Assembly: GCA_044869735.1 (NCBI GenBank)
Contig: JBIOXR010000105.1
Location: 1 to 31,175 of the forward strand
Direction of reading: 5' to 3'
DNA length: 31,175 nt
DNA from: Chlamydiales bacterium
GTDB lineage: Bacteria; Chlamydiota; Chlamydiia; Chlamydiales; JAAKFR01
The notes under the pieces were generated by a model. That model had not been told where the DNA came from, did no database searches, and saw nothing but the letters and a program-made list of their open reading frames with translations. The number at the start of each line of letters is the position of its first letter. The first letter of the stretch is position 1. Positions 6,147 through 17,132 of the stretch are shown here, piece by piece. A program made the position numbers and the translations under genes.

Positions 6147-6679
6147 TCGGATTTCTTATTTTCCTGCTGCTGTTCTTTTAGAAAAATTCTACGGTACTTA
6201 AAAATTAATTCAAAAAAGGCAAAAACTGCCATTACCGTAAAAAAGAGATAGATATAACCAGTAAAGACGAAACTGCATGAAAGACCGAGTAAAATGACGA
6301 ATTGAGCAAAAGTGGTCATTTTCCCCCAAAAGATGGCGCTCCATTCATATTTTTTCCACCCTCCCACGCAAAGCAGATAGACACCGAAACAACAAATAGC
6401 TATTTCTCTAGAAAGGAAGGCGAGGAGTTCCATATCGGTAAGTCTTTTTTCTAAAAAAAAGACTCCGCTGGCAAAAAAGATGAAAAAACGGTCCATCAGA
6501 GGATCGAGAATAGCTCCGAATTGGCTTGCTGTCTTTGTCTTCCTCGCTATAAAGCCATCGAGGAAATCGGTCAAAGCAGCGAGAAGCGTGGCAACTAAGC
6601 GGATAGCGACGTTAGATTGTAGAAAAGCGAATGCAAAGCTTGCTCTTGAAAGCGATAAGACATTCGAAAAAGTTAACAT
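6143..6679 (-). CDS. pgsA: CDP-alcohol phosphatidyltransferase (PgsA-like)
   Basis: Signature TDFLDGFIARK...FGAILDPLMD. Confidence 0.85.
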   Translation of the reverse strand: MLTFSNVLSLSRASFAFAFLQSNVAIRLVATLLAALTDFLDGFIARKTKTASQFGAILDPLMDRFFIFFASGVFFLEKRLTDMELLAFLSREIAICCFGVYLLCVGGWKKYEWSAIFWGKMTTFAQFVILLGLSCSFVFTGYIYLFFTVMAVFAFFELIFKYRRIFLKEQQQENKKSD

Positions 6680-7299
6680 TAATCGATTTCTTTTTCTGTT
6701 CGGGCCCTTTTTCTTTTATACCAAACGAAGAGAAAAGTTGCGATGGCAAAAACAGCAAAAATCGCAATATTGATTTTTGTAATTAAATGAGAGAAAAGCC
6801 ATTCACTTTTCCCAAAGTAATAGGCCAAAGAAAAAACAGCAGCTGTAGAGAAAAGGCATGCAAATAAATCGACGATTAAAAATTTCCCTAAACGCATTTT
6901 CCCCATTCCCGCCGTTAAAAAAAGAGGGTAACGGAATCCAAAAGGGATAAACCGCCCAAGGATGAGAGTTGTAATCCCATGCTTTTCATAATGTTGGCGA
7001 ATCCACTCCACTCTATCTTTACTAATGATCTTGGAAAACCACTTCAGTTTCAATAGCGGTGGACCTAACTTTCTGCCAGTAGAATAGACTAAAATATCTG
7101 CGATAAAAGCACCAAAATAGATGGCAGCATAGATCTTCCAGATGTTATCGGGGACGATTGTGCCAGCTAAAACACCTCCGCCAATGATGACGAGATCTTC
7201 ACTAATAGGCAGGCTTAATCCTGCCATAACTAACAAACAGAAAATTACATAGTGTGCAGCTTCGGCATGAGAGATGATAAAATTGAAAAGTGTTTCCAT
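6679..7299 (-). CDS. DedA-family membrane protein
   Basis: LPISEDLVII.GG and LGRFIPFGFR motifs; hydrophobic; 206 aa. Confidence 0.9.
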   Translation of the reverse strand: METLFNFIISHAEAAHYVIFCLLVMAGLSLPISEDLVIIGGGVLAGTIVPDNIWKIYAAIYFGAFIADILVYSTGRKLGPPLLKLKWFSKIISKDRVEWIRQHYEKHGITTLILGRFIPFGFRYPLFLTAGMGKMRLGKFLIVDLFACLFSTAAVFSLAYYFGKSEWLFSHLITKINIAIFAVFAIATFLFVWYKRKRARTEKEID

Positions 7300-7420: not shown

Positions 7421-7584
7421 AGAGACGTTCGTTGAATGAAACAAGTAGCGATTTTTGATGGATTTTTTTTCCCATTTTGCATGCGTTCCGAAGGACATAC
7501 TTGAATAAGTAGGCCAAGGAATGCATGTAAAATGGGGAAAAAAAGACGCAAAAACCGCTCTTGTCTCATTCAACGAACGTCTCT
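7421..7584. repeat. Palindromic intergenic element, copy 1 (164-bp rod-like inverted repeat, MITE/ERIC-like architecture)
   Basis: Perfect 19-bp terminal IR AGAGACGTTCGTTGAATGA (7421-7439) / TCATTCAACGAACGTCTCT (7566-7584). Near-continuous pairing runs inward to the apical TACTT-GAAT-AAGTA (7498-7511). The 27-nt core at 7492-7518 is identical to the reverse complement of 26697-26723. Confidence 0.9.
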
Positions 7585-7596
7585 TAGGGTACCTAA

Positions 7597-8670
7597 ATGA
7601 ATTTCAAATCAACCACTGCTCTCCTTGTGGGGAGTGGTGCATTAGTTGGACTATTGATCGGCGCTCTGGGGGTTATTCTTGGGGAAAAAAGAAATTCCCC
7701 AAATCCTATCCCATATCCACCCCCGCTCTGCCCTTTTGAAAATTGCATAGCGGCGGTCGGATGCATTCAACCTCTTAGAGATGAGCTTTGGATTGGAGTT
7801 CCTTTTGCTGAGGTCATTCAAGATGTTTATGTACAAGAAGGCGATGTCATCCCCAAAGGAGGCAGACTCTTCTCTCTATGCACCACTGCATTAGAAGCAA
7901 AAAAAAATCAAGCTAAAGCCGCGTTTACCACTGCTCTAGCTGAATATTCGCTACAGTTGTCACTACCGAGGGCAGAGACGATTCCCCCTCTAGAAGCTGC
8001 ACTAGAAGCTGCTAATGCTGAATACGAAGACTCACTCAAACACTATGAGCTTTACAAAAATGTCGATGAACCAAAAGCGATCAGTTTGGATGAATTAAAC
8101 CAGAGGATGTGGGCGGCCATTGCCGCCAAATTCAGAAAAGAACATGCAAGGGCCAATCTCGAGCTCGTAGAATCAGGAGCTTGGGTGAAAGATATTGAGA
8201 TTGCCAGAGCGAGGGTAATAGAGGCCAAGGCATGGATCGATGCTGTTGAAATCGAAATCGCTCGAGCGATCATCCGAGCTCCCTGTGATGGAGAAGTGCT
8301 TCAAATTAATATAAATGAAGGAGAAGCTGTTTCGGGGACGACAGTTCTGACACAACCTCATATCCGTTTTGGAGATACCCATCGATTCAGAATCTTGGTC
8401 AATATTGACGAAGAACAAATCTGGAGAGTGATAAAAGGCGCTAAGGCTAGAGCTTTTGCAAGAGGAAACAGCTCCATTTACGTCGATCTCGATTTTAATC
8501 GAATACAACCACTAGTTGTTCCAAAACAAGCGATTGCGAATCAACCTAAAGAACTGGTCGATGTTCGGGTTTTACAAGTGATCTATGAATTCGATCGAAA
8601 CGACCTCCCTTTTTACGTGGGTGAGCTCGTCGATGTTTATTTGGAAGGGAAACCCGATGAGATTACTTAA
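7597..8670 (+). CDS. HlyD/DevB-like membrane-fusion (periplasmic adaptor) protein
   Basis: N-terminal TM anchor; lipoyl-like halves EVIQDVYVQEGDVIPKGGRLF and IIRAPCDGEVLQININEGE flanking a coiled coil; DVRVLQVIY near the C-terminus. Confidence 0.88.
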   Translation: MNFKSTTALLVGSGALVGLLIGALGVILGEKRNSPNPIPYPPPLCPFENCIAAVGCIQPLRDELWIGVPFAEVIQDVYVQEGDVIPKGGRLFSLCTTALEAKKNQAKAAFTTALAEYSLQLSLPRAETIPPLEAALEAANAEYEDSLKHYELYKNVDEPKAISLDELNQRMWAAIAAKFRKEHARANLELVESGAWVKDIEIARARVIEAKAWIDAVEIEIARAIIRAPCDGEVLQININEGEAVSGTTVLTQPHIRFGDTHRFRILVNIDEEQIWRVIKGAKARAFARGNSSIYVDLDFNRIQPLVVPKQAIANQPKELVDVRVLQVIYEFDRNDLPFYVGELVDVYLEGKPDEIT

Positions 8671-17023: not shown

Positions 17024-17042
17024 TAAAGAAAAATAAGAAATG

Positions 17043-17132
17043 CGGAAAGAGAGGGATTCGAACCCTCGATACCCCTTAACAGGGTATGCGTCCTTAGCAG
17101 GGACGTGCTTTCGGCCACTCAGCCATCTTTCC
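17043..17132 (-). tRNA. tRNA-Ser(GCT), long variable arm, CCA not encoded
   Basis: Minus strand reads GGAAAGATGGCTGAGTGGCCGAAAGCA-CGTCC-CTGCTAA-GGACG-CATACCCTGTTAAGGGGTATC-GAGGGTTCGAATCCCTC-TCTTTCC-G: 7-bp acceptor stem, anticodon GCT, TTCGAAT T-loop, discriminator G followed by CAT. Confidence 0.97.

Follow-up and report, generated by a model that had tools for sequence, protein, structure and literature searches.

Judged from sequence, the two hairpin-forming repeats in the window analysed here (a 31,175-nt stretch that constitutes contig C105 of genome G000, an assembly of 1.45 Mb in 154 contigs with 44% G+C and 91% completeness) are members of a non-autonomous foldback transposon family (MITE, 161 bp) in environmental Chlamydiota. 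The family probably combines placement flush with the start codon of a neighboring gene with a translational relay, in which ribosomes would translate a short frame running through the whole element and re-initiate at the gene behind it. More tentatively, and with slightly less than an even chance in our estimate, these elements represent a transposon that has evolved to translational transparency, one that rebuilds both a start and a stop codon, carries a strand-specific relay frame and colonizes the operon junctions of compact intracellular genomes.

The family was recognized through a 27-nt string, AGGACATACTTGAATAAGTAGGCCAAG, which the initial annotation had reported twice in the window. 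These are indeed the only two occurrences (Table 1); none is expected by chance (100 shuffles), and no third site appears in the window even when 3 mismatches are allowed. The blocks said to flank the core are likewise found in both copies, with GATTTTTGATGG lying 30 nt upstream and GCAAAAA 29 nt downstream, and the inner stems quoted for them do pair, those of copy 1 with three G-T wobbles on the plus strand. While the cores had thus been placed correctly, the extents of the repeats had not, since each core is the apex of a far longer hairpin of ~160 nt, with folding energies of −96.9 kcal/mol (z −16.3) in copy 1 and −100.2 kcal/mol (z −13.1) in copy 2. Copy 1 is flush with neither of its neighboring gene starts. 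Copy 2 owes its extra length to a second small palindrome that interrupts its 5′ arm. This palindrome belongs to a separate family of small repeats of ~47 bp (TATAGTTGATTCAGG...CCTGAATCAACTATA), also seen in this genome at C60:1896-1940, C56:13416, C36:1068 and C118:30048; half copies of it stand directly before start codons with an AAGGA site, and the unit may be a promoter or leader motif.

Table 1. Coordinates of the elements and associated features (positions without a contig or locus label refer to the window)
Feature	Position	Strand	Description
Copy 1 of the foldback element	7422-7583	+	GAG-type variant ends GAGAC...GTCTC; flanks ATA/TTA; divergent intergenic region between a VTT/DedA-like gene (6679-7299, −) and an HlyD-like gene (7597-8670, +)
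GATTTTTGATGG block, copy 1	7450-7461	+	5′ arm; first of three GATTTT repeats with ~12-nt spacing
Apical core, copy 1	7492-7518	+	27 nt; 5-bp mini-stem TACTT/AAGTA, loop GAAT
GCAAAAA, copy 1	7548-7554	+	3′ arm; partner of the GATTTTTGATGG block
Copy 2	26632-26839	−	208 nt; standard ends GAACCTATCC...GGATAGGTTC; occupies the entire sdhA-sdhB junction
sdhB start ATG	26629-26631	−	immediately follows the last base of copy 2
Apical core, copy 2	26697-26723	−	27 nt
Nested palindrome, copy 2	26778-26826	none	47-49 bp, TATAGTTGATTCAGG...CCTGAATCAACTATA, in the 5′ arm
sdhA stop TGA	26838-26840	−	one flanking T plus the element's first two bases, GA
Further copy, this genome	C129:4065-4225		GAG-type ends; one core mismatch
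Further copy, this genome	C54:1322-1429		GAG-type ends; internal deletion, core truncated
Further copy, this genome	C21:8105-8256		GAG-type ends; variant core, apical mini-stem C:G to G:C (compensatory)
Further copy, this genome	C149:14740-14897		GAG-type ends; variant core, apical mini-stem C:G to G:C (compensatory)
Derivative, locus L121	G020:C1:1500992-1501046		55 bp; only the two terminal repeats and a short joining loop

Exact and profile searches found six copies in this genome. The core, described initially as invariant, is so in the two window copies only; the other copies show a mismatch, a truncation or a variant mini-stem. The expectation that the element would be abundant genome-wide fails for this genome (six copies in 1.45 Mb, at 91% completeness) and holds for relatives, one of which, G322, carries at least 34 copies of this subfamily. 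A degenerate core pattern searched in one genome per prokaryote species matched 102 stretches, all in Chlamydiota MAGs save one chance match; overall there are ~100 core matches, two of them chance ones (L104 and L253) and the rest in chlamydial MAGs. The carrier MAGs are labeled Rhabdochlamydiaceae, Parachlamydiales or "Chlamydiae bacterium", with a few labeled Verrucomicrobiae. With one chance match among viral contigs and none among plasmids, an origin from phages or plasmids was rejected.

Among 80 non-identical copies, nearly all are 161 bp long, start with GAACCTATCC and finish with GGATAGGTTC. When these two ends, 130-155 nt apart, were searched in 401 genomes of the same order, 67 genomes from many families contained the pair, with up to 44 exact-end pairs per genome, and the reversed-pattern control gave 0. 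Many of the matches have a different interior and yet form a full-length hairpin of about the same size, and the other subfamilies with these ends carry different apices. In our reading of these matches, the window family is one subfamily of a wider superfamily that shares its termini and the full-length hairpin.

The combination of terminal inverted repeats, target duplications and empty sites identifies the elements as mobile DNA. They are short, have no transposase gene (the sole frame encodes a 52-codon peptide with no Pfam match), possess conserved terminal inverted repeats, duplicate their target and occur as dispersed copies with presence/absence differences. The 2-bp flanks are the same on both sides in 61 of 79 copies and are mostly AT. 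Among the flank pairs other than AT/AT, 10 of 28 are identical (AG, AA, CT, TT, GT and GA) against an expectation of 1/16 (p = 4e-6), and other subfamilies show duplications of CT, TT, TA and GT. The five copies of this genome with GAG-type ends have 3-bp direct repeats (TTA, TAA, TAA and TAT; ATA/TTA at copy 1), as compared with 2 bp for GAAC-type ends; we take the two kinds of ends to carry the same inner module. Empty sites are also available. The gene start at locus L014 recurs in three sister species without the element, in a form that fits a duplicated AT, and in ~20 relatives sdhA and sdhB mostly show an ATGA overlap or a gap of 0-15 nt where the window has the 208-nt copy 2. Decay products comprise half elements, internally deleted copies, the 55-bp derivative at L121 and solo ends directly before gene starts. 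Solo ends of the form GTGAGATAGGTTC followed by ATG precede a cmk-like gene (L124:3029-3050) and a dut-like gene (L158, ~2643-2661), and here the terminus appears to have been kept as a ribosome-binding region after the remainder was lost. Integron attC sites, REP/RAYT elements and IS200/IS605-type hairpins were rejected by reasoning, as neither the duplications nor the conserved parts agree with them.

The elements show a strongly oriented relation to gene starts. With genes called by simple open-frame rules, and with copies that come from MAGs and are not fully independent (some are possibly orthologous), the left end in core orientation abuts CAT, the start of a leftward gene at distance 0, in ~41 of 79 copies, while the right end does so in ~5 (p = 4e-8). 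A symmetric transposase cut cannot give such an orientation bias, and therefore some feature of the element makes one orientation tolerable before a start. In the flush configuration the AT of the start codon is duplicated, so that the upstream AT and the first G of the element form a new ATG and the original ATG follows the last base. An overlapping upstream stop is often rebuilt as well, as a TGA made of a flanking T and the GA of the element; the junction before insertion is in these cases read as an ATGA stop/start overlap that the element has split and remade on both sides. The commonest setting, seen for 36 copies, is between two genes that are both encoded on the strand opposite the core; 17 copies separate two genes of the core strand, and a further 17 are placed between divergent genes. 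Copy 2 has the orientation of the sdhA and sdhB genes, which is the minority orientation of the family.

What distinguishes the favored orientation is an open reading frame through the hairpin. In 64 of 79 copies, a through-frame read from the junction ATG (the duplicated AT plus the first G of the element) along the complement of the core strand runs for at least 140 nt; it usually ends at a TAG within GGGATAGG, which leaves 4 nt to the flush ATG. Its counterpart on the core strand stays open in 2 of 79 copies, with a median stop at nt 57, and the other frames are closed. Column-pair shuffles that keep composition and pairing leave 43.8±3.5 copies open against 63 observed; when one representative is taken for each of 22 clusters (<85% identity), 17 frames stay open, a number attained by 1 of 500 shuffles (11.2±1.8). 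The encoded peptide is not conserved as a protein, as the entropies at the three codon positions are near-equal (0.87, 0.81 and 0.77). A real small protein was rejected on these grounds, there being no third-position excess and the inner frame being shifted in some copies, which nonetheless stay open to the same stop.

To relate frame and placement, we scored each strand of 143 end-defined elements, taking a frame as open when it extended to within 20 nt of the 3′ end so that the copies of G020, whose stop precedes the ATG by 16 nt, counted as open. Open frames were flush with a start in 50 cases and not flush in 39, as against 7 flush and 190 not flush for closed frames. Of the 50 open flush cases, 37 have their relay stop 4 nt ahead of the ATG, and 3 show an ATGA overlap. 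The association recurs in the other subfamilies, with 10 open and flush, 5 open and not flush, 1 closed and flush and 94 closed and not flush (p = 7e-10), frame-bearing types outside the window's subfamily measuring 158, 160, 161, 162 and 173 nt. Where a subfamily meets an early stop on either strand alike, its duplications vary and its members almost never adjoin a start codon directly; AT/AT duplications flank 19 of 55 such elements versus 64 of 88 frame-bearing ones. Within the window's subfamily, 46 of 59 flush copies have an intact frame versus 29 of 50 others (p = 0.04), which lends modest support. Copy 2 itself has no relay frame and is flush with sdhB in the closed orientation. Its AGGA, 7 nt before the sdhB ATG, could act as a Shine-Dalgarno site, and coupling of sdhA and sdhB across the element could occur only via a terminating ribosome that melts the base of the hairpin.

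Covariation between the arms, proposed from the two window copies, is borne out across the family. In the 79-copy alignment, 95.4% of the cells of 58 pairs are standard pairs, changes have occurred on both sides in 41 of the 58, and the covariation score is 0.41 versus 0.15 for shuffles and ~0.10 for slid partners. The internal loops keep their positions throughout the alignment, and the apical mini-stems covary between variants. Moreover, of the two strands the one bearing the core forms the more stable fold in 77 of 79 copies (−77.9 kcal/mol, as against −66.6 kcal/mol for its complement, a difference of ~11 kcal/mol), and it shows 246 G-U against 67 A-C combinations. All of this is what one would expect of a structured RNA or single-stranded DNA whose apical and internal loops are recognized by a protein while the arms covary, or of a cis-regulatory mRNA hairpin such as an RNase III site or stabilizer. 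We nevertheless consider this explanation unlikely. The G-U excess is confined to a few columns, and the stronger fold of the core strand arises because a few pairs (columns 52:124, 39:135, 53:123, 18:152 and 31:142) are T:G in many copies; among rare variants the two types are symmetric, at 71 G-U versus 67 A-C. A mutation bias behind the excess was also rejected, as it would need C-to-T changes on the template strand of most copies. The 34 copies in G322 are the most informative about resident elements. Here the stems have changed from consensus at 3.9% of positions, the 27-nt core at 5.3%, the internal loops at 6.7% and the terminal 12 nt at 11.3%; single changes in pairs comprise 51 G-U versus 55 A-C, and the majority are uncompensated. 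These rates and the symmetry show that resident copies are without extra constraint on the core and without a strand-specific pairing constraint, so that neither purifying selection copy by copy, nor a better-kept core, nor pairs maintained through G-U was found. In operons, in addition, the transcript mostly bears the weaker-folding complement of the core strand (36 versus 17), which leaves the stronger fold of the core strand a puzzling observation, since the mRNA usually bears the complement.

The initial claim of a protein-recognized folded RNA or single-stranded DNA under selection is not supported by these findings, given the inverted repeats, duplications, empty sites and decayed copies that mark mobile DNA, the core of G322 copies that decays like the stems, and apices that differ among subfamilies with the same ends. 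Kink-turn or tandem G-A motifs at the internal loops were rejected because they are not conserved among the aligned copies. As for known RNAs, the comparison with Rfam that had been proposed gave no family at the gathering threshold for either copy, and only sub-threshold matches of the elements to generic long-hairpin models; the sole Rfam-level RNA gene in the window is a tRNA-Ser (anticodon GCT) at 17042-17132 (−). We infer instead that the conserved fold and apex are a property of spreading lineages, in which they would be maintained during propagation, and not of each resident copy.

A third possibility is that the conserved features are signals in duplex DNA. Alignment columns 28-62 and 110-140 hold three GATTTT(T) tracts, ~12 nt apart, in the 5′ arm and matching A-tracts in the 3′ arm. 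The phasing of the T-tracts, which are present also in other subfamilies, suggests bent DNA or repeated binding sites. That the tracts, together with the apical palindrome TACTTnnnnAAGTA (a 5+4+5 inverted repeat), form the site of a nucleoid or regulatory protein is in our view very improbable, even though the tracts are among the best-kept columns: the apex is not specially conserved in resident copies and differs among subfamilies, no promoter-like site lies in the two window copies, and the effects of strand and orientation point to translation rather than to duplex DNA. A scan for promoters and terminators in the two window copies found none, and candidates noted by eye, for example TTGATT-17-CAGATT, fail the scan criteria. 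On both strands T-runs always precede the stems and A-runs always follow them, and there is therefore no intrinsic terminator in either direction.

The remaining alternative is a purely selfish MITE, in which the palindrome results from a foldback origin and arm-to-arm correction by template switching, and in which frame and placement arise as side effects of composition and survivorship. In an AT-rich 160-mer, one of six frames being open is nothing unusual in itself, no signal of codon position is seen, resident copies lack extra core constraint, and whole subfamilies without any frame are also successful; the stems of G322 copies are moreover slightly better kept than the loops, as arm correction predicts. 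The orientation bias of the flush copies would remain unexplained by this account, however, and so would a frame that is open beyond the column-pair shuffles, even where its inner part is shifted. Flush placement, furthermore, tracks the open strand in several unrelated subfamilies, and the stop falls 4 nt before the ATG in most open flush cases. On balance, the purely selfish explanation seems to us quite unlikely.

We therefore return to the foldback MITE with a translational relay, whose proposed course is as follows. The element, moved in trans by a DDE transposase, would insert at a dinucleotide. Should this be the AT of a start codon, the rebuilt ATG would be served by the signals that already precede the gene, or by an overlapping stop of the gene before it, and ribosomes would translate the relay frame, melting the hairpin; Rho-dependent polarity may also be prevented in this way. 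The ribosomes would then terminate 4 nt before the true ATG, by the Shine-Dalgarno-like GGGA or AGGA that the terminus supplies, and re-initiate. Elements that are frameless or reversed would block the gene behind them and disappear from sites of this kind. Such a relay would make insertion nearly silent in compact operons.

The parent transposase was sought through the ends. Extra GAACCTATCC-type ends in G004, G014, G020 and G024, the four carriers among the nearest relatives, revealed no transposase-bearing element, and no transposase in G020, G125, G221, G322 and G353 (DDE_3, rve, DDE_Tnp_1 and DDE_Tnp_1_2, with their ends inspected) had matching ends, in MAGs, which often lack IS copies; the individual element loci analyzed likewise contained none. 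The richest carriers, G125 and G353, have almost no DDE matches, PF13586 gave zero matches in carrier genomes, and partial matches of the element in G322 are truncated copies adjoining gene starts and not IS ends. Ends that begin with GA or GAG and duplications of 2-3 bp at A/T-rich targets recall what we take to be traits of the IS5 family (IS1031 and IS427 groups), which offers a lead; in contrast to this likeness, the PF01609 matches of the carriers have other ends. The relay peptide was also considered as the N-terminus of a transposase and rejected: among 1.84 billion proteins it has only matches of 43-131 aa, and none in Pfam. Those predicted proteins, which represent the frame of the element, form 65 representative clusters from public metagenomes (P0002-P0066), 24 of them exactly 52 aa long, and the longer members suggest fusions with neighboring frames.

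The initial comparison with ERIC, CIR and RPE elements is apt in that the family is a dispersed palindromic repeat of the ERIC/Correia/RPE kind, and the remark that no described family has such a core still stands, with no Rfam family and no paper describing it found. By analogy of function and form, Correia elements, ERIC, RPE and the Neisseria REP2 appear nearest (PMC3184786). Correia elements (CREE/NEMIS, Neisseria) are MITEs (~100-160 bp) that have terminal inverted repeats, duplicate 2 bp of target, adjoin genes, are co-transcribed, form a long hairpin and alter the expression of neighboring genes (PMC3184786). The chlamydial element resembles them in its size class, inverted repeats, 2-bp duplication, position beside genes and ends that pair into a long hairpin. 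It is set apart by duplication and host, as Correia elements duplicate TA whereas the chlamydial element duplicates mostly AT, with any dinucleotide possible, and belongs to another phylum (Chlamydiota as against Neisseria) with apparently unrelated sequence. The two window copies also differ from Correia elements in having no promoter-like site (an IHF site was sought by eye only, against the consensus). To our knowledge, neither a start-codon-flush position nor a frame through the whole hairpin has been reported for Correia elements.

RPEs, too, are palindromic repeats (~100-150 bp) of obligate intracellular bacteria, and their capacity to be translated lets compact genomes tolerate them (PMC3184786). 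They are, however, in-frame peptide inserts inside genes, whereas the chlamydial copies lie at stop/start junctions or in intergenic regions and have a short frame of their own with its own start and stop. The Neisseria REP2 and the Borrelia IR repeats are also among the closest systems. REP2 lacks terminal inverted repeats, does not belong to the foldback transposons and fuses its start to the gene, in contrast to the separate frame of the chlamydial element, which ends just before the gene. Transcription has been reported for a pneumococcal BOX element in which a 42-aa frame is predicted (PMC3184786). Like the chlamydial element, ERIC/IRU and BOX are transcribed imperfect palindromes in intergenic regions; they appear to share no sequence with it and have a different host range. 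ERIC elements in Yersinia have orientation-dependent effects. We know of no description, for ERIC or BOX, of a rebuilt stop and start or of a link between frame strand and flush placement, and our literature search found no description of a chlamydial MITE, nor of any MITE that sets a relay frame between a stop and a start codon.

Taken together, these elements make up a widespread, previously undescribed superfamily of mobile elements in a phylum with reduced genomes that are considered poor in such elements, and they offer markers by which strains can be typed and assembly breaks in chlamydial MAGs recognized. Two cautions follow for annotation and for RNA discovery: dozens of 52-aa "hypothetical proteins" in metagenomes are the frame of this element, and strong covariation in a repeat family need not imply a functional RNA. 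If the relay is true, it would be a new way for a transposon to inhabit operons without polar damage, as well as a natural portable module for translational coupling over a large structured spacer.
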